Positions 9,147 through 60,672 of a stretch of 64,000 nucleotides of DNA are shown here, in pieces. Source of the DNA: Acidobacteriota bacterium (GTDB taxonomy: Bacteria > Acidobacteriota > UBA6911 > RPQK01 > JANQFM01). Every line of letters starts with the position of its first letter. Positions within the stretch are counted from its first letter, which is position 1. Made by a program: the position numbers and the translations under genes. The notes under the pieces are model-generated. The model saw nothing but the letters and a program-made list of their open reading frames with translations, had not been told where the DNA came from and did no database searches. Where the stretch lies: the NCBI GenBank assembly GCA_041630155.1, contig JBFKLX010000002.1:3769-67768 (forward strand). The letters are read 5' to 3'.

Positions 9147-9236
9147 CGGGCTTTCGGAAACGATCGGCCGGCGCCACCGGAAGAGGCCAGCGTCCGACGA
9201 GATTCGGACTCGCGCAAGGGGCTTCGGGCCGTTCCG

Positions 9237-10007: not shown

Positions 10008-10189
10008 CGGCCGAGGACTATACCGGCTGCGGGCTGGCGGAACAAGAGGCGCCGTGCCGGTGGGTGGGCTGGCACCACGAAGCGGCGAGAGTCCGAGCTT
10101 CGATTCTCCGGGAAGTCTCTGCAATCCCCAATCATAGCCCCGGGGATCCGGAATTTGAGAGGAAAACGCTGGGGGGTGGCATGCCCCTC

Positions 10190-10654: not shown

Positions 10655-10835
10655 CGATCCCATCATACCGCACCGGCAGGTGCCTGACCGGGCGCCATGT
10701 GCCGCCCGGCCGGCGGCCCTCATGGGCTTCCGATTTCAGAGAGCACTTGCGCCGGAACCCCCCGATGCGGTATCACTATCGAGAATACGTTTTGGGGAGG
10801 CTGACAAGGAGATTCCATTCCTTTCGAGAAAGCAA

Positions 10836-14303: not shown

Positions 14304-17060
14304 CTAGGAGTCCTCCAAAGCGGCGTGGGCGGCGGCCAGCCGGGCGATCGGCACACGGAAGGGCGAACAGGACACATAGTTCAGTCCCAGTTCGTGGCAC
14401 AAGGCGATGCTCTCGGGATCCCCTCCGTGCTCGCCGCAAATCCCGATCTCGATGTCGGGACGGGTTTGGCGGCCCAGCTCCACCGCCATCTGCATGATCT
14501 TTCCCACTCCGTTGCGGTCGATCGTGGCGAACGGATTGACGGGCAGGATCTTCCGTTCCAGGTATTCGACCAGGAAACCGGCCTCCGCGTCGTCACGGGA
14601 GATCCCGAAGATGGTCTGCGTCAAGTCGTTGGTGCCGAAGGAGAAGAACTGGGCGTACTCGGCCAGTTCGTCCGCTGTCAAAGCGGCGCGCGGAATCTCG
14701 ATCATGGTGCCGAACTTGTGCTTGACTTGAGTCTTTTCCCGTTTCATCACTTCGTGTGCCACCGCCTCGAGCGCCTCTCGCTGCTCTTTCAGCTCGTTGG
14801 CGTGGCAGGTCAGGGGAATCATGATCTCGGGATGCACCTCTACCCCTTCCCGGGTGCAGCTGCAGGCGGCTTCGAAAATGGCACGCACCTGCATCTTCGT
14901 CAGTTCCGGGATGAGCAGCCCCAGGCGCACTCCGCGCGTTCCCAGCATGGGATTGGCCTCGCTGAGCGCCTCCACCCGCTCCAGGTAGTCGGACTTGGTG
15001 CGGATTTCAGCCAGGATCTTGTCCGTTTCCGATAGCACCCGCGCGTGCTGCAGCTGGATTTTCAAATCGGTCAGGTCGTGCACCAGCTCCTTGAACGAGG
15101 GGAGGAACTCGTGCAGCGGTGGATCGATCAGCCGGATGATCACGGGATAGCCGTTCATTGCCCTGAAGAGACCTTCGAAGTCGGCTCGCTGGAAGGGCAG
15201 CAGTTTGTCCAGGGCGTGCTGCCGTTCAATCGGCGTGCGCGCCATGATCATCTGTTGGACGATGGGAATACGCTCGGCTTCGAAGAACATGTGCTCGGTC
15301 CTGCACAGTCCGATTCCCTGGGCACCGTATTCACGGGCGCGTTGAGCATCGGCCGGGTAATCGGCGTTGGCCCACACCCCCAGTTTTCGGATCTGGTCGG
15401 CCCAGCCGAGGATCTTGAGCAGCCAGGGGTTATCGAAGGAGGGGACGAAAGTCGCAATCTGGCCCAGGTAGACCTCGCCGGTGGTGCCGTCCAGTGAAAT
15501 CCAGTCGCCTTCCTTGACGACCAGGTCCTCGCCGACACTCATGTGCCGCCCGTCCAGATCGATGTCCAGTTCACTGACGCCCACAACAGCCGGCTTTCCG
15601 AACTGGCGCGCCACCAGCGCGGCGTGGCTGGTCCGACCACCACGGCTGGTCAGCACGCCCTTGGCCGCCAGCAGCCCGTGCACGTCGTCCGGTTTGGTCT
15701 CGGGCCGGACCATGATGACGTCTTTGCCTTCTTCCTTGGCCCAGCGCTCGGCAATGTCGGCGTCGAAGGCCACCACACCCACCGCTGCACCGGGGGAGAC
15801 GTTGAGTCCGCGGGCGATCATGCGGCCCTGCTTGCGCCCCTCCGGCTCCAGCTGGGGATGGAGGAAGAAGTCCACCTGTTCCGGCTTGACGCGGCGCACG
15901 GCGTCATCCTTGCTGATCAGCCCCTCCTCGACCATGTCCACGGCAATGCGCACTTCGGCCTGGGCGGTTCGCTTGCCGTCACGGGTCTGCAGCAGGTACA
16001 GCTTGCCGTTCTCGATGGTGAACTCCATGTCCTGCATGTTGCGATAGTGCTTTTCCAGCCGCTTGGCGATGCTGTCGAATTCGTCGTACAGCTCGGGCAT
16101 CTGGTCTCTCAGCTCGGCCAGCGGCTGGGTCAGCCGGATGCCGGCTACCACGTCTTCACCCTGGGCATTGATCAGGAAGTCCCCTTCCAGCTCCGGTTCT
16201 CCAGTCGAGGCGTTGCGCGACATGGCCACGCCCGTGGCCGAGCTGTCCCCCATGTTTCCAAACACCATCGTCTGAATGTTGACGGCGGTGCCCAGATCAT
16301 GAGGGATGTTGGTGGCGTTGCGGTAATCGATGGCTCGCTTGCTGTTCCAGGACTTGAACACGGCTTCCGTCGCCAGCTTGAGCTGGACGAAGGGGTCGGT
16401 GGGAAAGTCCTGATTGGTGTAGGTCCGCACGATCTCCTTGAAGCGCGAAGTCACCTCCTGCCAGTCGGAGGCTTTCATCTGGGTGTCGCTGGCCGCCCCG
16501 ATCCGTTTCCGGTGAGCCGTGATGACCGCTTCGAAGACCTCGTCGGGAACCCCCAGCACCACGCTGCCGAACATCTGGACCAGACGACGGTAAGAGTCGT
16601 AGATGAAGCGGGGATCGCGCCCCTTCTGGATGGCCAGCTGAGCGACTTCGTCGTTGAGCCCGATGTTGAGGATGGTGTCCATCATGCCGGGCATCGAGAA
16701 CTTGGCACCTGAGCGGCAGGAGACCAGCAGCGGGTTTTCCGGATCGCCGAAGGTCTTGCCGGTCGCCTCTTCGATCGCCCTCATGGCATCCACTTCCTGG
16801 CGCCAGATCTCTTCCGGAAAGCCGTTGGCGCGCAGATACTCTTTGCAGGCTTCGGTGGTCACGGTGAATCCGGGAGGAACCGGGACTCCGATGCGCGTCA
16901 TGTCGGCGAGGTTGGCCCCCTTCCCGCCCAGCAAACCCCGGACTTTCTCCCAGCTTCCTTCGAGCCGCTCCTCGGCCTGTTGCACTTCATTGAAGAGATA
17001 CACGTATTTGACGGCAGTCGCTGAAGCCTGGCTGCTTTTTACTTGCGTTTTCTCGGACAT
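14304..17060 (-). CDS. ppdK: Pyruvate, phosphate dikinase
   Basis: Full-length PPDK architecture. 'GGKGANLAEM' is the ATP-grasp motif; 'TSHAALVAR' contains the phospho-His site; the C-terminal domain is a PEP-utilising TIM barrel. Confidence 0.95.
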   Translation of the reverse strand: MSEKTQVKSSQASATAVKYVYLFNEVQQAEERLEGSWEKVRGLLGGKGANLADMTRIGVPVPPGFTVTTEACKEYLRANGFPEEIWRQEVDAMRAIEEATGKTFGDPENPLLVSCRSGAKFSMPGMMDTILNIGLNDEVAQLAIQKGRDPRFIYDSYRRLVQMFGSVVLGVPDEVFEAVITAHRKRIGAASDTQMKASDWQEVTSRFKEIVRTYTNQDFPTDPFVQLKLATEAVFKSWNSKRAIDYRNATNIPHDLGTAVNIQTMVFGNMGDSSATGVAMSRNASTGEPELEGDFLINAQGEDVVAGIRLTQPLAELRDQMPELYDEFDSIAKRLEKHYRNMQDMEFTIENGKLYLLQTRDGKRTAQAEVRIAVDMVEEGLISKDDAVRRVKPEQVDFFLHPQLEPEGRKQGRMIARGLNVSPGAAVGVVAFDADIAERWAKEEGKDVIMVRPETKPDDVHGLLAAKGVLTSRGGRTSHAALVARQFGKPAVVGVSELDIDLDGRHMSVGEDLVVKEGDWISLDGTTGEVYLGQIATFVPSFDNPWLLKILGWADQIRKLGVWANADYPADAQRAREYGAQGIGLCRTEHMFFEAERIPIVQQMIMARTPIERQHALDKLLPFQRADFEGLFRAMNGYPVIIRLIDPPLHEFLPSFKELVHDLTDLKIQLQHARVLSETDKILAEIRTKSDYLERVEALSEANPMLGTRGVRLGLLIPELTKMQVRAIFEAACSCTREGVEVHPEIMIPLTCHANELKEQREALEAVAHEVMKREKTQVKHKFGTMIEIPRAALTADELAEYAQFFSFGTNDLTQTIFGISRDDAEAGFLVEYLERKILPVNPFATIDRNGVGKIMQMAVELGRQTRPDIEIGICGEHGGDPESIALCHELGLNYVSCSPFRVPIARLAAAHAALEDS

Positions 17061-17309
17061 CTCAACCCTCCCTTGCTCACACTGGTCCAATGCCGGCGCT
17101 TTCTCCGAAATCCATTCTCATCCATTCCTCTAGCCCGGGATCCTTGCACGCTGGACCTCGCGGTTCGAACTGGTCTCTATTCGCCTCCACGGGTCGGCCA
17201 ATCACCGCCTTTTCCGCTGGAACCATAGAGCAAGCCGCTCTCGGACGCAAACCGCAGATCCAAAGACACACCGCGGCAGCTCACGGCGATTCCGCGCTCC
17301 CGGCAGTGT

Positions 17310-32159: not shown

Positions 32160-35009
32160 GTGTCCACGATGGCGAGCCGGCGGACGGTCTCCAATCGGTT
32201 TTCCTGGTCGATCAGGGCCCTGTTGCCCCTGTGTTTGCTCACACCCGCGCCGGCTGCCGGACAAGCCCCGCCCACTCCGACGCTCGTGACCCCGGTCTTC
32301 CTGGGCGGCTTGAACCGAGATCCTCAACTCGGCCTCCGAGAGAGTGTCGGGCAATCCCGGCCTGGCAGCCTCCTCGTTTCCGAAGTCGACTCGGCCGTCG
32401 GCTGGATCAAGGAGGTTCGAGAACTGGGCTTCTCCCGCCCCCAAAGCCCTTTCGGCCAGGCCAAGCAGCTGCAGTGGACGGGCAGTGCAGAGGCCTCCTT
32501 CTCGTTCCAATTCCGGGGACTCGCTCCGCCCCAACTGGCCCGCCGAGCCAACCGGGGTTTTCTCGTCTTCAATTTGAGAGTCACGAGTGAAACACGGACC
32601 GATTTGCGAGTTGGGATCCGCTGCGCAGGCGTCGTCTTCCATTGCCTCACCGAGGTCACCCTCACCACCGAAGACCTTCCGGCCAGGGAGGTCTGGCAGA
32701 CCTTCCGCATCCCCGTTCACCCGCTCCCCCAGTTCACGGTGAGACCTGGACTCTCCCACGACTCCAAGGAACTTCCCCACCAAGGCGGTCAATCCGTCAT
32801 CTCTTTTCGAACTCGAGGCGCCACTCCGATGACGCTCGAATTGGCCTCGGTCCGGCTGGAAAAGTACGCCTCCGGCTGGAGCTTCGCCGAAAGCCGCGCC
32901 TCCGACCTGCTGCCGGAGATGACACTGGCGGAGAAGGTCGGCCAGATGATCATGGTCACCATCGACGCGTCTCCCGACTTCTTTCCCTCGGCGATGGCTC
33001 AATTCGGCCTGGGCGCGACCTTGATGGGGGGCGGCGCGGTTCCCGTGGACGGGGAACGAAACTCCCTGGATCGCACCGTGGAGTCCTTCGCCGCTTCTTT
33101 CGACGCCTTTCAGCGAGGCGCCCTGGCGACCCGGCTGGCCATTCCCGCGCTGAACGGCTGGGATTCGGTCCATGGCGCCTCCAATTCTTCAGGCACCACC
33201 GTGTTCCCTCATCAAATCGGCCTGGGTGCGACTCGAAATTCCGACCTGGTCCGCCGGATTGGCGAGATCACGGCTCGGGAATCGAGGGCTGGCGGTGCAA
33301 ATCTGGCTTTTTCGCCCGTCCTGGACGTGGCACGCGATCAGCGCTGGGGCAGAACCTACGAGAGTTTCAGTGAGGATCCCGAAATCGTCACTCGAATGAC
33401 CAGCCTCATCGACGGCTTGCAGGGGACGAGCGGGGCTGGGGCTGCGGAAGTCCTGGGCCCCCAGGGCGTTCTGGCTACCGCCAAACACTACCCGGGCGGG
33501 GGCTCGACCGACTTCCAGCTCCCCGATGTCTGCCGAGTGGCCGCCGCGCAGTGCCCCGGTTTTCATCAAATGACAACCCTGGACGGTAGAGACTCGACAC
33601 TCTCCGAACAGGATCTGCGAGCCATCCACCTGCAGCCTTTTCAGGAGGCGGTCCGCCGCGCAGTCGGGCTCGTCATGGTTGGCTACAGCGGCTGGAACGG
33701 CCTGGAAGCCCACGCTCACCGCTTCTTGATCACCGACCTGCTGAAAGGGGAACTGGGCTTCCAGGGGGTCGTGCTCTCGGACTGGGACGGCGACGGCGAA
33801 GTCGACCCGGCCAGCCCGCGTGACGGAGCGATCGAAGTAGTCGAGGCCGGGATCGACCTGCTCATGTTGCCCTTCCTCGAGGAGGTCTCGGGCGTGACCC
33901 AGGCCCTCATGACCCAGGTGCCGGAAACCAGAATCGACGACGCCGTCCATCGCATCTTGCAGGCCAAATTCCGCGCCGGCCTGTTCGACATCCCCTTCTC
34001 GCAGCCGGGACTTCGCAGCACTGCCCGATCCGAGGGGCACCTGCAGACGGCCCGTCAGGCCGTTCGGGAGTCACTGGTTCTGTTGAAGAACGACGCAGCC
34101 ACCCTGCCCCTGGCCCCCTCCCGAAAGATCTACCTGGCGGGAAAGGCCGCCGACAACCTGGGAATTCTGCTGGGAGGGTGGAGTCTCACCTGGCAGGGCG
34201 TGATCGACCCGGAAGACCAACGACGCCCCACAGGAACCACCATCCGCCAAGGCCTGGAGCGACTCCTGGGTGCGGACGATGTGATCTTCAGCCCGGACGG
34301 ATCGCTGCCCCTGGCCGGCGCTGAGGCGGGAATCGTGGTGGTGGGCGAGTATCCCTATGCAGAAGGCTGCGGGGATATCGAGAACCGGGTCTGGTGGTGT
34401 CCCTTCGCCAAGCCTCCGCCCACGCCCGGGAGCGTTGTGGTGACCGAGACCAGACCGCCGGGATTCGAGGCAGGTCTGTCGACGCTGCTGCCGCCGTCAC
34501 ACTCCATGAGCCTGGAAACGGACCGGTTCACTCACGTCTTTCCTTCCGGCGTCTTTGCCTCCAGCCCCGTCGAAGCCGACTACCTGATCGACCCCGACTC
34601 GGATTCCCGGCTGGTGGACCGGGTCTGTTCCGCGGTGCATGCAGCCGGAAACCCGTGTGTGGTGATCCTGGTCTCGGGGCGGCCCCTGTTCGTCGACCAG
34701 GAAATCGCGCAGGCGGACGCCTTCGTCGCGGCCTGGCTACCCGGTTCGGAGGGGGGAGACGGCATTGCCCAACTTTTGCTCCAGGACTGCGAGGGCGAGG
34801 TCGCGGCCGGTGACTGTGACTTCACCGGGACACTTTCCCACACCTGGCCCGCCCGCCCGGAGGGATCGGACTCCCCTGCCCTGGACTATCGCCCCCAGAA
34901 CATTTTCGTGGGCCAAAACGGCAGCCTGGACCGGGTTCTCGAGGTCAACGGCCAGCCCCTCCTGGTCGGATACGGGCTCAGCTACGACGGCCCGATCCGG
35001 AGGGATTGA
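32160..35009 (+). CDS. Secreted glycoside hydrolase family 3 protein with a roughly 260-aa N-terminal domain of unknown function
   Basis: Signal peptide. The GH3 N-domain motifs 'LAEKVGQM', 'FPHQIGLGATRN', 'LDVARDQRWGRTYESFSEDP' and 'VVLSDWDGDG' begin about 270 aa into the protein. A GH3 C-domain follows. Confidence 0.8.
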   Translation: MSTMASRRTVSNRFSWSIRALLPLCLLTPAPAAGQAPPTPTLVTPVFLGGLNRDPQLGLRESVGQSRPGSLLVSEVDSAVGWIKEVRELGFSRPQSPFGQAKQLQWTGSAEASFSFQFRGLAPPQLARRANRGFLVFNLRVTSETRTDLRVGIRCAGVVFHCLTEVTLTTEDLPAREVWQTFRIPVHPLPQFTVRPGLSHDSKELPHQGGQSVISFRTRGATPMTLELASVRLEKYASGWSFAESRASDLLPEMTLAEKVGQMIMVTIDASPDFFPSAMAQFGLGATLMGGGAVPVDGERNSLDRTVESFAASFDAFQRGALATRLAIPALNGWDSVHGASNSSGTTVFPHQIGLGATRNSDLVRRIGEITARESRAGGANLAFSPVLDVARDQRWGRTYESFSEDPEIVTRMTSLIDGLQGTSGAGAAEVLGPQGVLATAKHYPGGGSTDFQLPDVCRVAAAQCPGFHQMTTLDGRDSTLSEQDLRAIHLQPFQEAVRRAVGLVMVGYSGWNGLEAHAHRFLITDLLKGELGFQGVVLSDWDGDGEVDPASPRDGAIEVVEAGIDLLMLPFLEEVSGVTQALMTQVPETRIDDAVHRILQAKFRAGLFDIPFSQPGLRSTARSEGHLQTARQAVRESLVLLKNDAATLPLAPSRKIYLAGKAADNLGILLGGWSLTWQGVIDPEDQRRPTGTTIRQGLERLLGADDVIFSPDGSLPLAGAEAGIVVVGEYPYAEGCGDIENRVWWCPFAKPPPTPGSVVVTETRPPGFEAGLSTLLPPSHSMSLETDRFTHVFPSGVFASSPVEADYLIDPDSDSRLVDRVCSAVHAAGNPCVVILVSGRPLFVDQEIAQADAFVAAWLPGSEGGDGIAQLLLQDCEGEVAAGDCDFTGTLSHTWPARPEGSDSPALDYRPQNIFVGQNGSLDRVLEVNGQPLLVGYGLSYDGPIRRD

Positions 35010-35362
35010 GTTCGAGTGTCCCCGTCGGCGCGCGGTTCCCCGCGAAGAGTGGCGTCAGTTGCCGGTTTTTTGCGTCTTCCGAGGCGCCCATCGGTATGAA
35101 TCTTGCAACTAAGTTTTTTAGAGCTCGGCCGCCCGGGCGAGCCGTCCTCTCCGTTGCCGCCGCCGGTTGCCCGGTGAGACTGGGAGCCCGTTCGAGAAAG
35201 GCCGGCCTGAGCTCCCATCGTGGGGAATCGCCCTCGCGGTTGGTCTTACGGGTGAATCCACCCGTAATTGGTCGAGTTGGCCCACGACGCATCGGGCCAA
35301 CTCGGCCCTCGAAGCACCGTGGCTGCCAGCCGCGAGCGAACGATCTGGAACCGAGAACGACC

Positions 35363-35941
35363 ATGCTCGAGATTCGCTTTCATGGCCGAGGGGGACAAGG
35401 GACGGTCGTGGCTTCAGAGATTCTGGCCGTGGCCCTCTTCCAGGAAGGCAAATTCGTACAAGCTTTTCCCGCCTTCGGAGTGGAGCGGCGGGGCGCTCCG
35501 GTGGCCGCTTTTCTCCGTTGTGACGAGCGCCCGATTCGCCTGCGCTGTCAGATTGAAAGTCCCCATCACGTCGTGGTCCTGGACCCCACCTTGATCCGGG
35601 CAGTCGACGTCACGGCGGGACTCCAGCCCGGCGGGAGCTTGTTGATCAACAGCGAATGCCCTCCGGAGAGCTTCGAGGAGTTCCGGGCCGGAGGCTGGCA
35701 GGTCGCCACCGTGAACGCTTCCGGACTGGCGCTCCGGCATCACCTGGGGGCGCGAACACACCCGATTGTCAACACAGCGATCCTGGGGTCTTTTTCCCGG
35801 GTCACCGGAATGGTCGGTTTGAACTCCATCCTGGAGGCGATCGCCAGCGAAGTTCCCCTGCAGCCCGAGGACAACGTCGCAGCTGCACGCGAGGCCTACC
35901 AGGAGGTGCTTTTCGAAGCCGCCCCTGTTTCAGGAGGGTGA
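35363..35941 (+). CDS. porG: 2-oxoacid:ferredoxin oxidoreductase gamma subunit
   Basis: 'HGRGGQG' gamma-subunit motif. About 190 aa. It sits immediately upstream of the delta, alpha and beta subunits. The start is placed at the MLEIRF methionine (residue 120 of the track ORF). Confidence 0.8.
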   Translation: MLEIRFHGRGGQGTVVASEILAVALFQEGKFVQAFPAFGVERRGAPVAAFLRCDERPIRLRCQIESPHHVVVLDPTLIRAVDVTAGLQPGGSLLINSECPPESFEEFRAGGWQVATVNASGLALRHHLGARTHPIVNTAILGSFSRVTGMVGLNSILEAIASEVPLQPEDNVAAAREAYQEVLFEAAPVSGG

Positions 35942-35942
35942 C

Positions 35943-37631
35943 GTGAACCGCGAGACTCGTTTCGCCACCGCATCCGATTTGCCGCCCATGGCAGTGTCCA
36001 GGTCCGATACGACCGCCAACAAGACCGGGAGCTGGAGATATCTGCGGCCGGTGATCCGCGAAAAGCTCGCTCCCTGCCGCCATGCCTGTCCCGCTGGGAC
36101 AGATCTTCCGCGGGTCTTGCGGATGATTGGTGAGGGACGATGGAGAGAGGCCCACCAGCTCATTCTCGAGGAGAACCCTCTGCCTGGCGTGTGCGGCCGG
36201 GTCTGTTACCGCCCTTGCGAAACCGCCTGCAACCGCCGCCACTTCGACGAAGCCGCCTCGATCCAGGCTCTGGAGCGCTTCGTCGCCGACGTCTGTTTCG
36301 ACCTGCCGCCGGAGGCGGCCCAGCCCCAACGCAGGAAAGAGCGTATCGCCATAATCGGCACTGGACCCGCCGGGCTTTCGTGCGCCTATTTTCTGGCCCG
36401 CGAAGGGTTTCCAGTCACCATGATCGAAGCAGCATCGAAACCCGGGGGCATGCTCCGCACGGGAATTCCACGATACCGGCTGCCGCGCCGCGTCCTGGAT
36501 CGTGAAATCGGGAACATTGCCCGGCTCGGCGTCCAGATCCTGCTCGACTGCCGAGTGGGGGAACAGGTCACCCTGCAACAGCTCCAACAGGCCTTCGAGG
36601 CAATCTTCGTGGCCACGGGAGCCCACCGCAGCGTCAGTCTTGATCTCCCCGGGGGAAACCGGGCCAAAATCATGCCGGGGCTGGAGTTTTTGAAGCTGGT
36701 CAACGCCGGCCAGCCTCCCGAAATCGGCAAAGAAGTCCTCGTCATCGGCGGCGGCAATACCGCCATGGACGCCGCCCGCGCGGCCTTACGCCTGCGGAGC
36801 CGGCCGCTGGTCGCTTACCGTCGCAGCAGGGCCGAAATGCCCGCAGTTCCGGACGAGGTCGAGCAAGCCGAAAGCGAAGGCGTCGCGTTCCAGTTTCTGG
36901 CCTCGCCTCTGAGATTGCGGAAACGAAACGGCCGGATCGAGGTGGAGATGATCCGCATGGAGCTGGGCGAAATGGACAGCTCAGGCCGCCCCCGGCCGGT
37001 TTCGGTCCCGGGCTCCGAGTTCACTTTGATCGTCGATTCAGTTCTCGAGGCGGTGGGGGAAGGCTCTGAGCTGGCCGACCTGGCCCAAGGTCTTCTGGTC
37101 TCTGAGAAAGGCTCGCAGGTGCTCAGTGAGAAAGAGTCGCTGCAGTTTCTCGAAGCGGGAGGCCTGTTGGTCGGAGGGGACGCCGCTACCGGCGCCGGCA
37201 CGGTGGTGGAAGCCATCGCCTCTGGAAAGAGGGCGGCGCGTCAGATCGTGAGCCGCTTCTCACGGGAGCGGGAGGTCGTGCGGCCGGCGGAAGAGCCCGG
37301 CACCGGGATCCCGTTTTCCGACCTTCACCTGGAGACCTTCACCCGCAGCCCCCGCAAAGACCCCCCTCATCGAAGCGTGGCCGAGCGAATCGCGAGATTC
37401 ACCGAGGTGGTTGGACCTCTCGACGCCGCGGCAGCTGTGGCCGAGGCGAGGCGCTGCTTCTCGTGCGGGGTCTGCAATCAATGCGACAACTGCTGGGTGT
37501 TTTGTCCCGAAGGAGCGGTTTCCCGAGGCGCGGACGGCTACCGGCTCAACCTCGACTACTGCAAGGGATGTGGGATCTGCGTGCAGGAATGCCCCGGGGG
37601 GGTGATCTCACTGGTCCAGGAGGGACAATGA
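35943..37631 (+). CDS. Fusion protein: GltD/NfnB-like NAD(P)H:FAD oxidoreductase with C-terminal 2x[4Fe-4S] ferredoxin (POR delta-like) domain
   Basis: Collinear with the glutamate synthase small subunit: 'GVCGRVCYRPCETAC', 'ERIAIIGTGPAGLSCA', 'GGMLRTGIPRYRL', 'VLVIGGGNTAMDAARAA', 'GGDAATGAGTVVEAIASGKRAA'. The C-terminus 'CFSCGVCNQCDNCWVFCP...CKGCGICVQECP' carries two CxxCxxCxxxCP ferredoxin motifs. Confidence 0.8.
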   Translation: MNRETRFATASDLPPMAVSRSDTTANKTGSWRYLRPVIREKLAPCRHACPAGTDLPRVLRMIGEGRWREAHQLILEENPLPGVCGRVCYRPCETACNRRHFDEAASIQALERFVADVCFDLPPEAAQPQRRKERIAIIGTGPAGLSCAYFLAREGFPVTMIEAASKPGGMLRTGIPRYRLPRRVLDREIGNIARLGVQILLDCRVGEQVTLQQLQQAFEAIFVATGAHRSVSLDLPGGNRAKIMPGLEFLKLVNAGQPPEIGKEVLVIGGGNTAMDAARAALRLRSRPLVAYRRSRAEMPAVPDEVEQAESEGVAFQFLASPLRLRKRNGRIEVEMIRMELGEMDSSGRPRPVSVPGSEFTLIVDSVLEAVGEGSELADLAQGLLVSEKGSQVLSEKESLQFLEAGGLLVGGDAATGAGTVVEAIASGKRAARQIVSRFSREREVVRPAEEPGTGIPFSDLHLETFTRSPRKDPPHRSVAERIARFTEVVGPLDAAAAVAEARRCFSCGVCNQCDNCWVFCPEGAVSRGADGYRLNLDYCKGCGICVQECPGGVISLVQEGQ

Positions 37632-38794
37632 CCACGCTATCGGCCCAAGCGAAAGTAATGACGGGGAATCACGCCGTCTCCCACGGCGCCCTGCTGTCGC
37701 GCGTGCAGGTGATCTCTGCCTACCCGATCACACCTCAGACGCAAGTCGTCGAACGGCTGGGCCGTTTCTGCGAAGAGGGTCGGCTGGAAGCCCGGTTCAT
37801 CAGAGTGGAGTCGGAACACTCGGCCATGGCGGCCCTGGTCGGCGCCGCCACAGCCGGCGCGCGAACCTTCACCGCCACCTCTTCGCAAGGCCTCGCCCTG
37901 ATGCACGAGATGCTGCACTGGGCAGCCGGGGCCAGGCTGCCGATCGTGATGGCCAACGTCAACCGCGCCCTCGGCCCTCCCTGGTCGGTCTGGACCGACC
38001 AAAACGACAGCCTCTCACAACGGGACACGGGCTGGATGCAAATCTACTGCGAGAGCAACCAGGAGGTGCTCGACAGCCTGATCCAGGCCTACCGGGTCGC
38101 CGAGAAGGTCTCGCTTCCAGTCATGCTGGTACTGGACGCCTTCGTGCTGTCGCATACTGCCGAGCCGGTCTCACTGCCGAACCAGGAGACGGTGGACTGC
38201 TATCTGCCCCCGTACCAGCCCGAGTGGAAGCTGGACATCGCGGACCCGCGCAGCTTCAGCGGCCTCACGACACCGGACACCTACATGGAATTCCGGTTCA
38301 AGATGCAGGAGGCGATGGAGCGAGCGCTGGAAGAGTTCGAAGCTGCCGATGCCGAGTTCCAGGCGCTGTTCGAACGCCGCTACGGCCTGGTGGAAGCCTA
38401 TCGCTGCGAGGATGCAGAGCTGATTCTGGTGACCTCCAGTACCGCCACCAGCACGGCACGAGTCGTCATCGACGAGTTGCGCGAGCAGGGACGTCCCATC
38501 GGGCTGCTGAAGATCCGGCTCTTTCGCCCCTTCCCGGCCCGGCAGGTCCTCGAGGCCCTGTCCACGGCGCGAAAGGTGGCCGTGCTGGACCGGAACATCG
38601 GCTTCGGAGCCGGCGGGATCTTCGCGCAGGAGGTCAAGGCCGCCCTGTACAACCACCTCCAAATCCCGGTCTTCGGCTTCGTGGCGGGACTTGGGGGCCG
38701 CGACATCACACCCGCCGTCCTGCGGGAGGTGATCGACTACGCGACGGATCATGCCCAGCCGGAAGACCTCGTGTGGATAGGGGGAAAGCCATGA
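37628..38794 (+). CDS. porA: 2-oxoacid:ferredoxin oxidoreductase alpha subunit
   Basis: 'VISAYPITPQT' alpha-subunit signature. About 389 aa. ATGA overlap with the upstream gene. Confidence 0.85.
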   Translation: MTTLSAQAKVMTGNHAVSHGALLSRVQVISAYPITPQTQVVERLGRFCEEGRLEARFIRVESEHSAMAALVGAATAGARTFTATSSQGLALMHEMLHWAAGARLPIVMANVNRALGPPWSVWTDQNDSLSQRDTGWMQIYCESNQEVLDSLIQAYRVAEKVSLPVMLVLDAFVLSHTAEPVSLPNQETVDCYLPPYQPEWKLDIADPRSFSGLTTPDTYMEFRFKMQEAMERALEEFEAADAEFQALFERRYGLVEAYRCEDAELILVTSSTATSTARVVIDELREQGRPIGLLKIRLFRPFPARQVLEALSTARKVAVLDRNIGFGAGGIFAQEVKAALYNHLQIPVFGFVAGLGGRDITPAVLREVIDYATDHAQPEDLVWIGGKP

Positions 38795-39705
38795 GTCAGG
38801 TCCATTTCCCGTTTCCCGAAGAAGAACTCCTCAGCACGGGGCACCTGGGTTGCCAGGGCTGCGGCGCCGCTCTGGCCATGCGCCACGTGCTCAAAGGCCT
38901 GGGCGAGAAGACCGTCGTGGTAATCCCGGCTTGTTGCTGGTCAATCATCGCGGGCCCCTTCCCCTATTCGGCCCTCCGCGTCCCCGTGTTGCACACGGCT
39001 TTCGAGACAGCAGCCGCGTCGGCTTGCGGGGTGCGGGCCGCGCTGGACTGCAAGGGGGACCGCGAGACCACGGTCATGGCTTGGGCGGGAGACGGCGGGA
39101 CCTTCGACATCGGACTTCAGGCACTTTCCGGAGCCGCCGAGCGGAACGAGAACATCCTTTACGTGTGCTACGACAACGAGGCCTACATGAACACGGGTGT
39201 CCAAAGCAGCTCGGCAACCCCCTGGGGCGCCTGGACTACCACGACTCCCGATTACAAGAAACAGTCCAAGAAGGACATCATGCGGATCATGGCGGCTCAC
39301 GGGATCCCCTACGCCGCAACCGCATCCGTGGCTCACCCGGATGACCTGGTGCGGAAAGTGCAAAGCGCCCGGGACATCGAAGGGATGCGTTTCCTGCACG
39401 TGCTGGCGCCCTGCCCACCGGGCTGGAAGATCCCCTCCGAGCTCGCGATCAAGCTGGCCCGTCTGGCCGTCCAGACACGGATGTTTCCCCTCTTCGAAAT
39501 CGAAGACGGCCTGCGCTGCCGGCTCAGCCCGGTGGCCGACCCGCAACCGCTCGAAGAGTACCTGCGCCTGCAGGGCCGCTTCAGCCATCTGAGCGAGCGG
39601 GACGTCCAGCACCTGCAACGGATGGTGGACGAGCGCTGGGAGCAGCTCGAGAACTGGGCGGCACGCGAGCCCGTCTCGACGCCGGCCGTGCCGGCGAAGT
39701 CGTAA
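38791..39705 (+). CDS. porB: 2-oxoacid:ferredoxin oxidoreductase beta subunit (TPP-binding)
   Basis: 'CQGCG' motif. 'GDGG.FDIG...N' is a TPP-binding GDG...N motif. 'VCYDNEAYMNTG'. ATGA overlap with porA. Confidence 0.85.
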   Translation: MSQVHFPFPEEELLSTGHLGCQGCGAALAMRHVLKGLGEKTVVVIPACCWSIIAGPFPYSALRVPVLHTAFETAAASACGVRAALDCKGDRETTVMAWAGDGGTFDIGLQALSGAAERNENILYVCYDNEAYMNTGVQSSSATPWGAWTTTTPDYKKQSKKDIMRIMAAHGIPYAATASVAHPDDLVRKVQSARDIEGMRFLHVLAPCPPGWKIPSELAIKLARLAVQTRMFPLFEIEDGLRCRLSPVADPQPLEEYLRLQGRFSHLSERDVQHLQRMVDERWEQLENWAAREPVSTPAVPAKS

Positions 39706-39920
39706 AAGCCAGCATCCCTCGCCAAACCCGCGCGCCAGCGCTCCTGGTCGACGGCCCGGCCGATCCGCGACTCTTCGCCGGCGGCCTGGCACCCCAGCCG
39801 AGGCGTTCCCATTCACCCCCTCGCCGTCCATCGCGCCCCTGCCGATCCACCGATCCCAGGCCTCCACTGCCAGCCTTCGCCATCCCCTCTCCACAGCAAC
39901 CGAGTCGCTGTCCAGAGAGG

Positions 39921-39965
39921 CTCGATTTTCACTCACGTGTCACATTAGATTCTAGAATCTAAATA
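39921..39965. repeat. AT-rich 45-bp element, copy A (ctcgattttcactcacgtgtcacattagattctagaatctaaata)
   Basis: Direct near-identical copy of the element at 40530-40573. Strongly AT-rich in a roughly 65% GC genome. Contains the -10-like sequence TAGAAT. Confidence 0.7.
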
Positions 39966-40140
39966 TCTTCATAAAATAGAACTCTTCTCCTATTAGATCC
40001 CGTACTGGACACCCGGCTGAAAGAGAATTGCCCTGTCCCCTTTCCCGTCCCCTCTCCCGCTTGTGCTCGGGGGTTCGACCCGGCGTCGGTCCGATTGTGC
40101 CCTGTCCCCAGCCGGCCATCCGCACGGGCGGATCTGTGCC

Positions 40141-40192
40141 CTGTCCCCAGGTTTTTCGCTGTCCCCAGGTTTTTCTGTCCCCAGGTTTTTCG
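40141..40192. repeat. Tandem repeat, three units of CTGTCCCCAGGTTTTT(CG)
   Basis: Three adjacent units of 18, 16 and 18 bp seen directly in the sequence. Each unit embeds the second half of the dispersed motif (TGTCCCC). Confidence 0.8.
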
Positions 40193-40529
40193 ACCCGGTT
40201 TCCAGCTGTGACCCCGGGAGGTCTGGAGGTCTGAAGGCAGACGGAGAGTGTGTGAATCCTGCCCTGTCCTCATTCTCCGTTCGTTCCCACCTCGTCCCCG
40301 TCAGCCGGCCTCGGTCCGACTTCTGCCCTGTCCCCAGCCTGTCTGCCGCCTACGTCGAGGGCCCAGACGAGGCTCAACCGTTGGCCGGCATCCTCACACA
40401 CGGTCGACTCGTTGCGATTCACAACCCACTCCCACCCTCATCGCTGCCCTACCTCTCTGACGACTCGAAGCCCACCCTCGCCACCCTCGCCACCCTCCCC
40501 ACAAACCCCGAATGGCTGCCTGACACGCG

Positions 40530-40573
40530 CTCGACTTTTACTCATTTTTCACATTAGAACCTATAATCTAAAT
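40530..40573. repeat. AT-rich 45-bp element, copy B (ctcgacttttactcatttttcacattagaacctataatctaaata)
   Basis: Direct copy of the 39921 element (about 80% identity). Contains a perfect TATAAT. Confidence 0.7.
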
Positions 40574-41373
40574 AGCCGTAAAAAAGTTATTAATCTTAGG
40601 CGCAATTCCGTTCCCTGATGGAAACGAGCTGCCACAGAGTTGTCCAGCCCCTGTCACCCGGCCCGTCCGATTCTGCCCTGTCCCCAGTCTGCCCAGCCTG
40701 GCGAGAGCCAAGGGAAATTCACGAAGCTGCTGGAATCCTGGCCCGCGCCGCCTGGCAGGCGTCACATCTGCCCTATCTCCCAAGAGCCTTCGATCGGGTT
40801 TCAGCGGTGAGCTCCTGGGGGTCTGGATGCAACGGTTGTCCTGAATCTTGCCCTGTCCCCTATGATTCCCTTCTGCGCACTCTGCCGGGGACGGAGAATC
40901 GCTGAGGCGCGGCTGCCTGGTTGGGTGATCTGACCCGTGGGGGGTGCTTATTACACTGCCTGCTGGAAGCATCACTGTTCACACACTCCGAACCCACCTC
41001 TTCAATCTGAACAGTCCCCCGCGCTCCCCTTGCGCTCTGAGGATGACCCGGGCTGGCTCGGGTGGCCGCGCCTCGAATGACTCTCTGGCACATTGGGCTG
41101 GCTGCCTCGGCTCGGCCGGAAGGCCCTTCAGCACAAGGCTTCCCGCGCTTCGCGACGCATCAAATGCGAATCGCAGGCCAATCGAGCCGCAGCAGCTCCC
41201 GGGCCGGGATCGACCGCCTTCTGCGCCGGTCATCCCCGATCCGAGGGGACTCGGCAACCGATTGGCGAGCCGACAGCGGTATAGAAGTTGCTTCGCTGTC
41301 TGCATTCGACGGATTAGAGAATCCGGTACACGCAGAATGCTTTCGAGCCGCATTTCTGGAAGGGGGTCCAGCT

Positions 41374-43071
41374 ATGACAAGGCGAACTTTACGACTCAGC
41401 TTACTGGCAATCACGATCTCCGTGCCAGCCTTCGTGCGGGCCGATGGAGACTATCGCTCGGTCGACACGGAGGGTCCTGAGAGCCGCTCTGGCCACACCC
41501 TGAGCGGAGTGTACATGTTCGGAGGTCGGAGCGACGAAGGAGACGTCTTCGATGAACTCTGGGAGTTTGGCTTTGATGGGGAGACTGGCTTTGATCCTGA
41601 ATGGAACGAAGTGCCTTTCATTGACCCCTGGCCCGCGGGGCGCTGGGGTCACGTCTCCTGGGTCTCGGACCGCTACCTTTACATTGCGGGCGGCCGCGGC
41701 GCCGACTCCCAGTTCATCCCGGACGCGTGGCGCTTCGACACCGTCGCCAGGACCTGGCAGGAGATCGAATTCTATCCAGGCCCGCACCAGGTCGCCGGAG
41801 GAGCCGCCTCACACGACAACAACGGCTACCTGTTTGCCACCGAGGACGGCGCGATCCATACGTACGACGAGGAGACCAACCAATGGGAGACGCTACTCCC
41901 CGACAGCGGGCCCACCCAGCGCTCTCATAGCACCGTGGTCCAGAATATCCCCCCCGGACCCGCCAATGGTCAGCAGCCGCTTCAGAATGGCAACTCGTCG
42001 AAAGCCTGGGTGATCGGCGGTGCCAACGCGTCTGGCATCTCGAGCGAAGTTTGGGAGTTCGACTTCGCCACTCAAAGCTGGACCCGGCGGGCCGATCTGC
42101 CCGTGGCTCTGTCCAGCCTGGCCGGAGCTTACGATGATCAGCGAGATCGAGTGCTGGTTTTTGGCGGCGTGAGCCCCGAGGGTTTCAGCCGAGCCACCTG
42201 GGAGTACGATCCCGCCACGGATTCCTGGACGCGACGTCTCGACATGCCTGAGGCCCTAGTACTGTCCGGGGCCACGGCCACTGGCGAAGGGGGAACAATC
42301 ATCTTCGGGGGCCGCAGGAGCGACCAGACCGCTTCGGGACGAACACTCGCCTATCGCTCCGGCGAGACCCTGTACATGGCTCAGTTCGGCAACGGCCAGG
42401 GGTTCACCAGCGACATCGTGTTGGCCAACCCCACCGCCGACCAGACAGCTTCGGGCACGATTTCCTTTGCCGGAAACGAAGGACTTCCCCTGGAGGTCAC
42501 GATCGTGGGGGACACTGGATCAGCGTCCGCTCATCGAATCATTCCCCTTCAGGCCGGTTCAGAGGTGGAGTTCTCCATCCCTCCGCGAGCCAGCATCACG
42601 CTGTCGACGGACGGCCAAGGCGATTTGGTCGAGGGCTCCGCACGGGTTCTCTCAAACCTCCGCCTGGGAGGAGTGATCCGCTTCAGCATCCCCGCAATCG
42701 GGATTGCGGGCGTGGGGGCGAGTCCCCCGATGGACGGTTTCATTGTCCCGGTGCGACGCCAGGCGGGAGGTATCAACACCGGTCTGGCCATCTTCAGCCG
42801 GGAAGTGAGGCCGGTCACTCTCGTGCTGACGCTCTACAGTGATGGTCAGCAGATTGCGACCACGACGATCGAAGATTTCGTGGCCCGGGCCCACCTGGCC
42901 CGCTTCATCGATGGCCTCTTTCCCGAGGTCGACACCACCGACTTCGTAGGAACAGTGGTGGTCGAAGTGATCGACGGCCAAGTCACTGCCACGGCCCTTG
43001 AGCTCGGCCGCCAGCCCGGCCAGTTCACCACTCTACCGGTGACTCCCCTGGAGCCGAGCCCCAGTTCGTGA
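41374..43071 (+). CDS. Secreted Kelch-repeat (galactose-oxidase-like beta-propeller) protein with a C-terminal beta-rich domain
   Basis: Signal peptide 'MTRRTLRLSLLAITISVPAFVRA'. Repeated 'GG...W.FD/YD....W' Kelch blades. The start is placed at residue 105 of the track ORF. Confidence 0.7.
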   Translation: MTRRTLRLSLLAITISVPAFVRADGDYRSVDTEGPESRSGHTLSGVYMFGGRSDEGDVFDELWEFGFDGETGFDPEWNEVPFIDPWPAGRWGHVSWVSDRYLYIAGGRGADSQFIPDAWRFDTVARTWQEIEFYPGPHQVAGGAASHDNNGYLFATEDGAIHTYDEETNQWETLLPDSGPTQRSHSTVVQNIPPGPANGQQPLQNGNSSKAWVIGGANASGISSEVWEFDFATQSWTRRADLPVALSSLAGAYDDQRDRVLVFGGVSPEGFSRATWEYDPATDSWTRRLDMPEALVLSGATATGEGGTIIFGGRRSDQTASGRTLAYRSGETLYMAQFGNGQGFTSDIVLANPTADQTASGTISFAGNEGLPLEVTIVGDTGSASAHRIIPLQAGSEVEFSIPPRASITLSTDGQGDLVEGSARVLSNLRLGGVIRFSIPAIGIAGVGASPPMDGFIVPVRRQAGGINTGLAIFSREVRPVTLVLTLYSDGQQIATTTIEDFVARAHLARFIDGLFPEVDTTDFVGTVVVEVIDGQVTATALELGRQPGQFTTLPVTPLEPSPSS

Positions 43072-43145: not shown

Positions 43146-43231
43146 TGCCCTGTCCTCACTCCCGAGAGTGCCCTGTCCCTGTCTCCAACTAGACTCCCAA
43201 CTAGAAGGTCGATGAAGTTTGCCCTGTCCCC
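43146..43231 (+). repeat. Second cluster of the TGCCCTGTCC[CT]C motif, three copies
   Basis: Copies at about 43146, 43169 and 43220. They lie between the convergent Kelch gene and the Cys-rich protein gene. One further copy sits at 51110-51121. Confidence 0.7.
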
Positions 43232-58861: not shown

Positions 58862-59112
58862 GCCCTTGGCTCGTGACACCGGCCCGCCGCCGGTGATCCG
58901 TTGGTCGTGAGACCAAGCCTCCCAGCCGGTGATTCGGGGCCCTCGTGTTCACTGCTGACACCGGCCGTCGAGGCCGGTTTGGTGTGCACGCGGACGGCAT
59001 CGTGCCCACGGTCCCCGGGACGGAAGGCAATCGTCAGCTCTTTCTAAGGGGCTTTCGCCAGGGCCTTTTGCTCCCGGAATGCTGGCGAAACGAGGCTTGG
59101 AGGTATTCCAGC

Positions 59113-60672
59113 TTGGGATGCAACGCGCTCAACTCGGCAGGTCAGCGAGTTGCGTCACTGCTGTTGCTCGGCCTGAGCACGTGCAGCTTTCCTGCGGGCG
59201 AGCCGGCCACTCCGGAATCCCCTTCGGGCGTCCGTACTCCGTCCCCCCGGTCCCAGTCCGAAAAAGCCGAAACTCCCTTGATCGAAGCCGTTCGCTCCGG
59301 CAACGAGCTTCTGGCGGAGCAACTCGTCTCTCGGGCCGAAGCCGACGGCCGCGGACTGCATGGCCGGACTGCCCTCATGTACGCTGCAGCCGGGGGCAAG
59401 ATCGGGGTAGTCCGTCGCCTCCTGGAGGCGGGAGCCGATCCGCACCTGACGGACGACTCGGGCAACACGGCGCTCTTCTTCCTCCCCCAGGAGGACGACC
59501 CGACCATCGCGCGCCTGTTGGTGGAAGCCGGCGCCGACGTCAATCGGACCAATCGATCCGGAGCGACTCCCCTTGTCACGGCCGCCCGGCTCGGTCACAC
59601 CGAAATCGCCCGCTATCTGCTCGAGCAGGGGGCGTCGGCTCGTGGCGACCCTGCCATCCTGATCGAGGCGATGCGCAATGTTCGCCTGGAGACGGCTCGG
59701 CTCCTCTTGGAGTCCGGCGCGGCGCCCAATCCGGCCCTGAAGGACGGCCGATCGCTGCTGCACGAGATTGCCGAGAGGGGCGAGCTGGAAGCTGTTCGGC
59801 TCCTGCTCGAGCGCGGGGTGGTGCCCGATCGTGAAGCCCCTGCTGACAGTTGTTGCCCGGGGCAGACCCCGCTGATGGCCGCGGCGGCCAACGGACACCG
59901 GGAGGTCGTCTCCCTCCTTCTCGAACGCAGAGCCCGTCCCGACGGCTCGAGCCAGGCCCGCACTACCCCGCTCCTGCTGGCCATCGGTGGCGGACACCTG
60001 GAGGTCGTGAGGCTGCTCCTGAAGGCAGGCGCGAACGTCGACCGACGGGGACGGGAGGAGTCACGCCCGACACCACTCTTGCTCGCCGCCATGGAGGGCC
60101 AACCCGAGATCCTCCGGCTGCTGTTGGACGCCGGTGCCGATCCCAACGCCCGCAACCGCCACGGCGTGACACCTCTGATGTTTGCCGCTTTCCATGGACG
60201 GACGGAGACGGCCCGCCTGTTGCTCCGGCAACGGGTCGAGTTGGAGGCAGTCAACCAGGACGGCAACACTGCCTTGATGCTGGCGGTCTTCCGGCGCCAC
60301 GCTCCGGTGGTGAAGTTGCTGCTCGAGCGGGGAGCGTCCGTCGATGTTCGCAACCACATCGGGGGGTTCGGCTTCGTCAGCCCACTCATGCTGGCGGCCG
60401 GTCGCGGCGATCTGGAGATCGCACATGACCTGCTGGAGCACGGCGCCGCCCCCGACCAGTTCGACGAAGTGGAAGAGCTGGGGCACATCAGCCCACTCAT
60501 GCTGGCGGCGCGCCGAGGGTTCAACGACCTCGTGACCCTGCTGCTGGAGCATGGAGCCGATCCGGGACTCCAGGACGACAGCGGCCAAACCGCGCGCGAC
60601 TGGGCGCGCCAGAACGATCGACCGGAAGTCGAGGCCATCCTGGAGCGTGCCACCCGAGAGAGGCCGAGGTGA
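59113..60672 (+). CDS. Ankyrin-repeat lipoprotein (at least 12 ANK repeats)
   Basis: Repeated 'G.TALM.AA..GH.EVV.LLLE.GA..' units. Putative lipoprotein signal with lipobox 'LLLLGLSTC'. A TTG start with an upstream GGAGG is proposed, since there is no in-frame ATG upstream of the signal peptide. Confidence 0.7.
   Translation: MGCNALNSAGQRVASLLLLGLSTCSFPAGEPATPESPSGVRTPSPRSQSEKAETPLIEAVRSGNELLAEQLVSRAEADGRGLHGRTALMYAAAGGKIGVVRRLLEAGADPHLTDDSGNTALFFLPQEDDPTIARLLVEAGADVNRTNRSGATPLVTAARLGHTEIARYLLEQGASARGDPAILIEAMRNVRLETARLLLESGAAPNPALKDGRSLLHEIAERGELEAVRLLLERGVVPDREAPADSCCPGQTPLMAAAANGHREVVSLLLERRARPDGSSQARTTPLLLAIGGGHLEVVRLLLKAGANVDRRGREESRPTPLLLAAMEGQPEILRLLLDAGADPNARNRHGVTPLMFAAFHGRTETARLLLRQRVELEAVNQDGNTALMLAVFRRHAPVVKLLLERGASVDVRNHIGGFGFVSPLMLAAGRGDLEIAHDLLEHGAAPDQFDEVEELGHISPLMLAARRGFNDLVTLLLEHGADPGLQDDSGQTARDWARQNDRPEVEAILERATRERPR

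Follow-up and report, generated by a model that had tools for sequence, protein, structure and literature searches.

2-Oxoacid:ferredoxin oxidoreductases (OFORs) normally need a soluble low-potential carrier. Pyridine-nucleotide-linked 2-oxoacid oxidoreductases already exist as well, namely the phenylglyoxylate:NAD+ oxidoreductase PadEFGHI of Azoarcus/Aromatoleum, the 2-oxoglutarate oxidoreductase (KGOR) of Azoarcus evansii and the eukaryotic pyruvate:NADP+ oxidoreductase (PNO). PadEFGHI is of the PorABDG type and reduces pyridine nucleotide via an extra FAD subunit, with PadH, the flavoprotein, and PadF, the delta subunit, as separate proteins, and KorC of A. evansii is a ~34-kDa protein that resembles ferredoxin-NADP reductase and is not GltD-like. 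PNO is a single-chain pyruvate:ferredoxin oxidoreductase (PFOR) with a C-terminal FMN/FAD domain like that of cytochrome P450 reductase, i.e. an unrelated flavoprotein added by end-to-end fusion. In StnC and NfnABC, a GltD/NfnB-like module serves as a non-bifurcating NADPH port from which electrons pass singly down a [4Fe-4S] chain (PMC10482914; PMC11829005), and the GltD domain of Stn (residues 102-565) is flanked by a [2Fe-2S] domain and by the remainder of a NuoG-like protein (PMC10482914). Here we describe a four-gene por operon in a stretch of 64,000 nucleotides from an Acidobacteriota bacterium (contig JBFKLX010000002.1, positions 3,769 to 67,768; hereafter the window), whose second gene codes for a 562-aa protein occupying the place of the delta subunit PorD. 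From sequence comparisons we consider it likely that the operon encodes a PorABDG-type oxidoreductase, probably acting on pyruvate, which is independent of ferredoxin and is linked to NADP(H) via a module inside its delta subunit.

Operon and protein architecture

All four genes lie on the + strand, in exactly the order and at the coordinates given in an earlier note made from the sequence of the window.

35363-35941, + strand: porG (porC), gamma subunit, 192 aa, ATG start; Pfam POR PF01558, 1.3e-34
35943-37631, + strand: 562-aa gene, GTG start; PorD interrupted by a permuted GltD/NfnB-like flavoprotein module
37628-38794, + strand: porA, alpha subunit, 388 aa; Pfam POR_N and PFOR_II
38791-39705, + strand: porB, beta subunit, 304 aa; Pfam TPP_enzyme_C

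The coupling through ATGA overlaps that the same note had proposed is present between the 562-aa gene and porA (37628-37631) and between porA and porB (38791-38794), but not between porG and the 562-aa gene, where the junction reads TGA-c-GTG, with the GTG one base past the stop codon and a GGAGG 6 bases upstream. The residues F7, P14, A17 and S19 encoded after this GTG are conserved throughout the family, which makes it the right start of the 562-aa gene. The gene product can be divided into five parts.

35943-36065, + strand: PorD N-terminal arm, residues 1-41, with the motif ANKTGSWRYLRPV; match to 9bt4_G
36066-36302, + strand: helical Fe-S domain of the GltD/NfnB-like module, residues 42-120, without its first two cysteines; C45, C49, C88, C92, C96 and E111
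36303-37262, + strand: FAD/NADPH-binding Rossmann domains, residues 121-440; Pyr_redox_2 at 134-428, PDB matches
37263-37466, + strand: linker and displaced GltD/NfnB N-terminal segment (466-508), residues 441-508, ending in R-C505-F-S-C508
37467-37631, + strand: PorD 2x[4Fe-4S] ferredoxin domain, residues 509-562 and stop codon; C511/514/517/521 and C540/543/546/550

The usual delta subunit is a single small protein of ~80-105 aa, whereas here both of its halves are present, ~465 residues apart. The sole PDB match of residues 1-52 is PorD of the Methanosarcina acetivorans pyruvate:ferredoxin oxidoreductase (POR), residues 11-37 of 9bt4_G, covering ANKTGxWRxxRPV, and the PorD_Arch and TIGR02179 profiles match this N-terminal arm at profile positions 6-38. 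At the other end of the protein, residues 506-560 score 67.7 bits with PorD_Arch and 58.8 bits with TIGR02179. When residues 42-502 were deleted in silico, the joined halves (1-41 and 503-562, 101 residues) reached 77.2 bits with TIGR02179 (PorD_KorD), against a cutoff of 60.05, and covered profile positions 6-77 of 78. As the excised halves pass this model, PorD is split, with the flavoprotein inserted between its arm and its ferredoxin domain.

The best sequence matches of the inserted module in the PDB are to 9bov_A (3.8e-108), 9n5u_A (2.9e-99) and 8oh5_C (1.5e-83), and it also matches NfnB/NfnL, GltD and dihydropyrimidine dehydrogenase (DPD). It contains an FAD motif, G139-x-G141-x-x-G144, and an NADPH motif, G269-G-G-N-T-A274, together with Y292-R-R. 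The canonical collinear order of GltD and NfnB is not found: the native sequence matches TIGR01316 and TIGR01318 only from profile position ~33-48 onward, and the native Fer4_20 match on the N-terminal side covers only profile positions 30-108 of 113. Residues 471-511, behind the flavoprotein domains, align with residues 8-48 of Pyrococcus furiosus NfnI-L (5jca_L) and with the N-terminus of GltD, and C505 and C508 fall on Cys42 and Cys45 of NfnI-L, the first two [4Fe-4S] ligands of NfnB (PMC12221290). The order was then restored in silico by moving residues 456-508 ahead of residue 42, and the result was compared with the native core (42-445). The Fer4_20 score increased from 65.1 to 88.7 bits (profile 2-108 of 113), that of TIGR01316 from 308.9 to 325.6 bits (profile 2-445 of 449) and that of TIGR01318 from 262.6 to 295.2 bits (profile 3-464 of 467). 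By these profile matches the GltD/NfnB-like module is circularly permuted and inserted in PorD, and is not an end-to-end fusion. The fusion of a delta subunit with a GltD-type flavoprotein, as read in the earlier note, is thus retained, but its end-to-end collinearity with GltD/NfnB is not, given the arm at residues 1-41 and the permuted module.

The AlphaFold2 (AF2) model of the 562-aa protein is confident as a single body (pLDDT 91.3, pTM 0.89), with the arm (residues 1-30) and the linker (441-450) as its only weak stretches; the low pLDDT of the arm is expected in a model of the monomer because it is a docking arm. The best fold matches of the model are the chains 9bov_A, 9n5u_A and 8oh5_C (TMq 0.75-0.76 over ~600 columns), ahead of NfnL/NfnB, GltD and DPD.

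Homologues and gene neighbourhood

The 562-aa sequence belongs to a family that is already catalogued, and the copy in the window is one ordinary member of it. The protein contains Fer4_20 (43-118), Pyr_redox_2 (134-428) and a C-terminal 4Fe-4S dicluster (510-556) as Pfam/NCBIfam domains, and it passes the full-length model NF009410 (PRK12771, 'NAD(P)-binding protein') with 533.4 bits against a cutoff of 516, residues 17-560 aligning with profile positions 22-565 of 566. A protein database search gave at least 5978 relatives at E <= 1e-20, and a scan of one genome per species gave at least 569. The best 120 relatives are full-length, come from independent assemblies and are 45-58% identical; 118 of them measure 527-594 aa and two, which are fused to PorG, 745-769 aa. 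Some relatives carry the JGI name "2-oxoacid:acceptor oxidoreductase delta subunit". A 100% identical protein is present in the independent NCBI assembly GCA_041600635.1 and in three further cluster members.

In all, more than 180 homologues cover the full length of the protein. Conservation was assessed in 182 relatives, comprising 26 porG-X-porA-porB loci and 33 porG-porA-porB-X loci, where X stands for the homologue of the 562-aa gene, and 123 metagenomic proteins. None of the 16 predicted Fe-S ligands (C45, C49, C88, C92, C96, E111, C505, C508 and the eight cysteines of PorD) varies in this set, all being 100% conserved, and the same holds for G29 and W31 of the arm and for the GxGxxG and GGGNTA motifs. 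Y292-R-R is kept in all but a few relatives.

The gene neighbourhoods of 80 loci from species-representative genomes were compared and could be sorted as follows.

26 loci, and one more truncated at the end of its contig: gene order porG-X-porA-porB, the same as that of the window; por genes adjacent
33 loci: porG-porA-porB-X order; por genes adjacent
1 locus (L063): match reaching the arm, with divergent neighbours; divergent OFOR alpha/beta pair adjacent
19 loci: GltD-like match starting at residue 36 or later (no arm); no OFOR genes adjacent

The arm-bearing gene adjoins OFOR genes in 61 of 61 loci and the armless GltD-like gene in 0 of 19, the armless loci without OFOR neighbours serving as a natural control. 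In the 61 loci the gene is an uninterrupted open reading frame (ORF) collinear with that of the window. The closest por operon is that of a Ca. Fraserbacteria metagenome-assembled genome (L002), with 72% identity for PorA, 69% for PorG, 67% for PorB and 54% for the fusion protein. The porG-porA-porB-X order occurs in Rhodocyclaceae, Sulfurisoma, Rubrivivax, Rhodoferax, Rhizobiales, Paracoccaceae, Solirubrobacterales, Gleimia and Succinivibrio. Cultured bacteria that carry the operon include Sulfurisoma sediminicola (L026), Gleimia europaea (L044) and Rubrivivax sp. (L048).

Apart from the operon, the 64-kb window contains no CxxCxxCxxxCP motif that would indicate a free porD or small ferredoxin. 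On the possibility, raised in the earlier note, of a free ferredoxin or delta gene near the operon in relatives, no free porD or small ferredoxin gene was found in 59 related loci over 5 kb to each side of the gene, where only two other dicluster ORFs were present. All-against-all clustering of the flanking ORFs of these 59 loci did not reveal a conserved fifth gene either, the only recurrent ORFs being the por genes, their antisense shadow ORFs and, in 4 loci, a phosphoenolpyruvate (PEP) synthase/pyruvate phosphate dikinase (PPDK) gene. In these 4 loci it lies directly upstream of porG (e.g. L023, 3-2114, +), and in the window a PPDK gene is found at 14304-17090 (-), 18 kb upstream of the operon; this weakly hints that the enzyme is connected with the interconversion of pyruvate and PEP.

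Several variants were seen among the related loci. porG and the PorD/GltD gene form a single in-frame fusion (737-769 aa) in L012, L016, L018, L019, L047 and L057 and in the proteins P0024 and P0074, and such forms occur in Planctomycetota/Phycisphaerae, Melioribacter and Lewinellaceae. In the porG-porA-porB-X loci (e.g. L023, L026 and L044), PorA is ~30 residues longer at its C-terminus, with a conserved FLDLDxxxV...SGPxAE tail, and a gap or extension of 80-250 nt lies ahead of the PorB core. A PorB ORF of 745 aa with a long C-terminal addition is found in Ca. Tectomicrobia (L009, 7261-9498, +). Directly downstream of porB, L002 carries an ORF of at least 992 aa (8672-11647, +) with POR_N, TPP_enzyme_C, Fer4_20 and Pyr_redox_2. 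It represents another type of 2-oxoacid oxidoreductase, IorA-like and likewise fused to a GltD-like flavoprotein; similar ORFs start at ~10760 in L003 and at ~10550 in L019, and the window has none.

Catalytic core and substrate

PorA, PorB and PorG each fall into the corresponding POR family (alpha, beta and gamma). PorA matches PF01855 (6.6e-74) and PF17147 (5e-29), and among solved chains it is closest to 9bt4_B, from the M. acetivorans POR (3e-105). PorB matches PF02775 and, with aligned cysteine motifs, 9bt4_C (2.7e-76); it has the thiamine pyrophosphate (TPP) motif GDG...N at residues 100-134 and the cluster cysteines C21, C24, C48/49 and C208. PorG scores 198.5 bits with TIGR02175 (PorC_KorC), against a cutoff of 81.1.

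Pyruvate is the best guess for the substrate, and on the family matches a reasonably good one. The best NCBIfam model of PorA is PorA_Arch (NF040682), which also ranks first for the PorA of six representative relatives covering both operon types; the delta parts have PorD_Arch as their top model and PorG has the POR gamma model. The solved enzymes nearest to the core are a true POR (9bt4) and then oxalate oxidoreductase. It is possible, though rather unlikely, that the architecture and acceptor are as proposed and that the substrate is instead a branched-chain 2-oxoacid, as in 2-oxoisovalerate oxidoreductase (VOR), or another small 2-oxoacid. Several results weigh on that side and against pyruvate. 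PorA stays below the cutoff of PorA_Arch (499.7 vs 550), as does PorB below that of the PorB equivalog PRK11865 (373.3 vs 405), and PorG reaches 199.9 against a pyruvate equivalog cutoff of 225, although this is its best-scoring model. PorB does pass NF008818 (3-methyl-2-oxobutanoate dehydrogenase beta; 419.3 vs 405), which is its top model, and the VOR alpha model gives PorA 413.9 bits, compared with 499.7 for PorA_Arch. The predicted substrate pocket of PorA, which reads NRALGPPWSVWTDQ, has Trp/Val where the Desulfovibrio africanus PFOR has L121/I123 and the M. acetivorans POR has Ile/Ile, and is thus unlike the pockets of known PORs. These pocket residues are suggestive as an indicator of the substrate, and the Trp would argue for a small rather than a branched one. 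In the porG-porA-porB-X relatives, by comparison, the pocket is almost identical to that of the M. acetivorans POR and the POR models exceed those of VOR by ~150 bits, which also speaks for pyruvate.

Predicted electron path and alternative readings

The module inside the delta subunit would be a circularly permuted NADP(H):iron-sulfur oxidoreductase of the GltD/NfnB kind, with one FAD and two [4Fe-4S] clusters. Electrons would pass from the TPP intermediate to the [4Fe-4S] cluster of PorB, from there to the two clusters of PorD and then to the distal cluster of the module, whose ligands, by homology with DPD and NfnB, we take to be C505, C508, C45 and C96. The proximal cluster, presumably bound by C49, C88, C92 and E111, would follow, and then the FAD, acting as a plain non-bifurcating converter between one- and two-electron transfer, which would reduce NADP+ by hydride transfer. 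The predicted net reaction is pyruvate + CoA + NADP+ -> acetyl-CoA + CO2 + NADPH, with no soluble ferredoxin. With textbook potentials of -500 and -320 mV, the transfer from pyruvate to NADP+ amounts to about -35 kJ/mol and is strongly downhill in the oxidative direction. Because C508 and C511, the first PorD ligand, are only two residues apart, the distal cluster of the module would be located beside a PorD cluster, and the adjoining clusters would form a continuous wire of five. NADPH rather than NADH is suggested as the pyridine nucleotide because of the YRR motif and the use of NADPH by all solved homologues. The prediction of the earlier note that the TPP/[4Fe-4S] core exchanges electrons directly with a pyridine nucleotide is consistent with the conserved fusion, the invariant motifs and ligands, the adjacency to OFOR genes and the absence of a free porD nearby.

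This path has some evidence against it too. The AF2 model is that of a monomer and gives neither cluster-to-cluster distances nor the docking of an external ferredoxin. E111 is a Glu of the NfnB type and not a Lys of the Stn type, and R179, the equivalent of R201, is kept among the relatives. E111 aligns with a Lys in 9bov_A; the proximal-cluster ligand is Lys170 in StnC and a Glu in NfnB (PMC10482914), and the assignment of E111 to that position relies on an estimate of the numbering offset between the chains.

An enzyme that depends mainly on ferredoxin or flavodoxin, with the flavoprotein as an auxiliary on-board ferredoxin:NADP+ reductase that is used conditionally or for redox sensing or protection, is in our view improbable. 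Such a function would agree with the intact PorD ferredoxin domain, which has all eight cysteines, and with the activity of stand-alone NfnB-like proteins as ferredoxin:NADP+ oxidoreductases (PMC12221290), and ferredoxin genes may be present elsewhere in the genome, beyond the 64-kb window. However, neither a ferredoxin nor a free porD gene lies near the 59 related operons, the covalent C508-xx-C511 junction places the module cluster beside those of PorD and thereby favours internal transfer, and the strict co-inheritance of arm, module and OFOR genes argues for an obligatory role.

Still less probable is that the NfnB-like FAD bifurcates or confurcates, coupling NADP(H) to the low-potential POR chain and to a second partner of higher potential, which would allow, e.g., NADPH-driven pyruvate synthesis or the simultaneous reduction of NADP+ and another acceptor. 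The published discriminators of bifurcating NfnB are an nfnA gene directly upstream, Arg333 near the FAD and an extended N-terminus on the cluster helices (PMC12221290). The last has a counterpart here in residues 471-511 (residues 8-48 of the P. furiosus protein), placed after the flavoprotein domains, and, like the retained E111 and R179, this long segment would fit bifurcation; the PEP synthase gene directly upstream of porG in a few relatives hints at a gluconeogenic role, the PPDK gene of the window being 18 kb away. On the other hand, the gene upstream is porG, no NfnA-like gene is present in the operon, and the 59 operons share no conserved subunit for a second branch, whether NfnA/PyrK-like or of another kind. 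The position of Arg333 of P. furiosus NfnL is taken by V302, and among the 182 relatives by I/V/H/F/M/L/N/S/T but never by R, for which the discriminators indicate a monofunctional enzyme (PMC12221290). As there is neither nfnA nor an Arg at this position, a linear, non-bifurcating wire is favoured, and the closest solved relatives use the module as a non-bifurcating NADPH port as well.

Finally, an assembly or frameshift artefact merging a GltD-like gene with porD is ruled out, to near certainty, by the identical independent copy, the 120 homologues, the 61 loci and the curated full-length HMM, and a single frameshift cannot explain the 562-aa ORF since PorD sequence is present at both of its ends. 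The earlier note had considered that its reading would fall if the ferredoxin domain were a frame artefact or if the FAD and NADPH motifs were missing; the full-length homologues, the full-length model and the identical copy elsewhere argue against the former, and GxGxxG, GGGNTA and YRR are present and conserved.

The architecture is found in hundreds of species of many phyla, among them Bipolaricaulota, Acidobacteriota, Planctomycetota, Desulfobacterota, Actinomycetota and Rhodocyclaceae. If the NADP(H)-linked path that we favour is correct, a hard-wired NADP(H) port would tie pyruvate/acetyl-CoA interconversion directly to the NADPH pool. The protein is currently annotated as 'NAD(P)-binding protein', 'glutamate synthase small subunit' or 'delta subunit', and metabolic reconstructions therefore probably mis-assign the electron acceptor of the enzyme. 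A compact NADP-linked catalyst for pyruvate decarboxylation or carboxylation would also be of biotechnological interest. Should the FAD bifurcate instead, the enzyme would be a pyruvate synthase that is driven by NADPH and needs no ferredoxin, with which bacteria, among them the many aerobic or facultative lineages carrying the porG-porA-porB-X operon, could assimilate CO2 and acetate.

Surrounding DNA

The 5' boundary of the por operon is indicated by the following element, located after the upstream GH3 gene (32160-35009), and this is the sole terminator-like site within 34900-40300.

35050-35074, + strand: terminator-like hairpin and T-run

No second copies of por or GltD-like genes were found in the window, and no functional link to the operon was seen for neighbouring genes (the GH3 glycosidase, a Kelch protein, ABC exporters and an MqnC/CofH-like radical S-adenosylmethionine gene). 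Downstream of porB lie 1.36 kb without a convincing ORF (39706-41061). This region holds 7 of the 13 copies of the 12-mer TGCCCTGTCCCC found in the window (0.86 expected by chance), and the other copies, at 43146-43231, 44803, 51110 and 7790, are also intergenic. The same region contains CTGTCCCCAGGTTTTTCG as a tandem of three (40141-40192) and two copies of a 57-nt AT-rich element (39920-39976 and 40529-40585), which are 609 nt apart and 77% identical, in surroundings of 64% GC. The first copy of the element includes a perfect palindrome, TTAGATTCTAGAATCTAA (39946-39963), operator-like in appearance. A scan of the 64-kb window at the Rfam gathering thresholds gave no RNA family and no rRNA or tRNA. 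Two proteins of kinds that are unusual in bacteria are also encoded in the window, one of 575 aa with ankyrin repeats (58945-60672) and one of 669 aa with Kelch repeats (41062-43071).

Comparison with known systems

The catalytic part of the operon is closest to PorABDG as represented by the M. acetivorans POR. The two share homologous alpha, beta and gamma subunits, the N-terminal arm as well as the 2x[4Fe-4S] domain of PorD, and the gene order porG-porD-porA-porB, in which the 562-aa gene fills the porD slot. The differences are the interruption of PorD by a module of ~465 residues for FAD, NADPH and two [4Fe-4S] clusters, a predicted acceptor that is NADP+ and not free ferredoxin, and Trp/Val in place of Ile/Ile in the pocket.

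PNO, found in Euglena and Cryptosporidium, catalyses the same net reaction as predicted here, also through a fused flavoprotein. The operon does not belong to this type, as its subunits are separate and no flavodoxin domain or domain of the ferredoxin-NADP+ reductase type was detected with Pfam/NCBIfam. Membership of PadEFGHI was rejected as well, with scores of 166.7 vs 300 for PadE, 313 vs 700 for PadG, 257.3 vs 700 for PadI and at most 57.5 vs 150 for PadF, and none of the listed matches to the flavoprotein core was to a model named after PadH. As a precedent the earlier note had named NADP-dependent 2-oxoglutarate oxidoreductases with a GltD-like third subunit, a description that KorC of A. 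evansii does not fit.

With NfnB/NfnL of NfnAB (NfnSL) and the ferredoxin:NADP+ oxidoreductases of the Cac_0764 type, the module shares the fold and the set of cofactors, namely FAD, an NADPH site and two [4Fe-4S] clusters that have a Glu among their ligands. It differs from them by its permuted order, by the lack of an NfnA partner and by Val/Ile/His at the position of Arg333, and it would be joined covalently to its electron donor, where they meet free ferredoxin. The large subunits of the Bfu-type transhydrogenases, StnC (8oh5) and NfnA of NfnABC (9bov, 9n5u), match the module best in both sequence and fold, and in them, too, the RCxxC segment comes after the flavoprotein domains and the module is inserted in another Fe-S protein. 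There the host is NuoG/formate-dehydrogenase-like and docked to a bifurcating core of the HydBC type, whereas here it is PorD on a TPP enzyme, and the position of the proximal ligand has a Lys (in 9bov_A; Lys170 in StnC) where E111 is found here. A further parallel is HdrA of the ANME-1 archaea, in which an NfnB-like domain interrupts an inserted ferredoxin domain (PMC9012536); its host is a heterodisulfide reductase, and the protein is likewise uncharacterised.

In the literature searched, which covered few subscription journals, no published description or assay of this PorD/GltD-type protein was found. The operon stands apart from the known systems by its host, PorD, by the cluster site predicted to be rebuilt at two insertion junctions and, apparently, by the lack of a biochemical description. 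Taken with StnC/NfnABC and the HdrA of ANME-1, PorD is a further clear example of a mobile, permuted NfnB-like cassette spliced into different Fe-S proteins, in which one [4Fe-4S] site would be rebuilt from cysteines at both insertion junctions.

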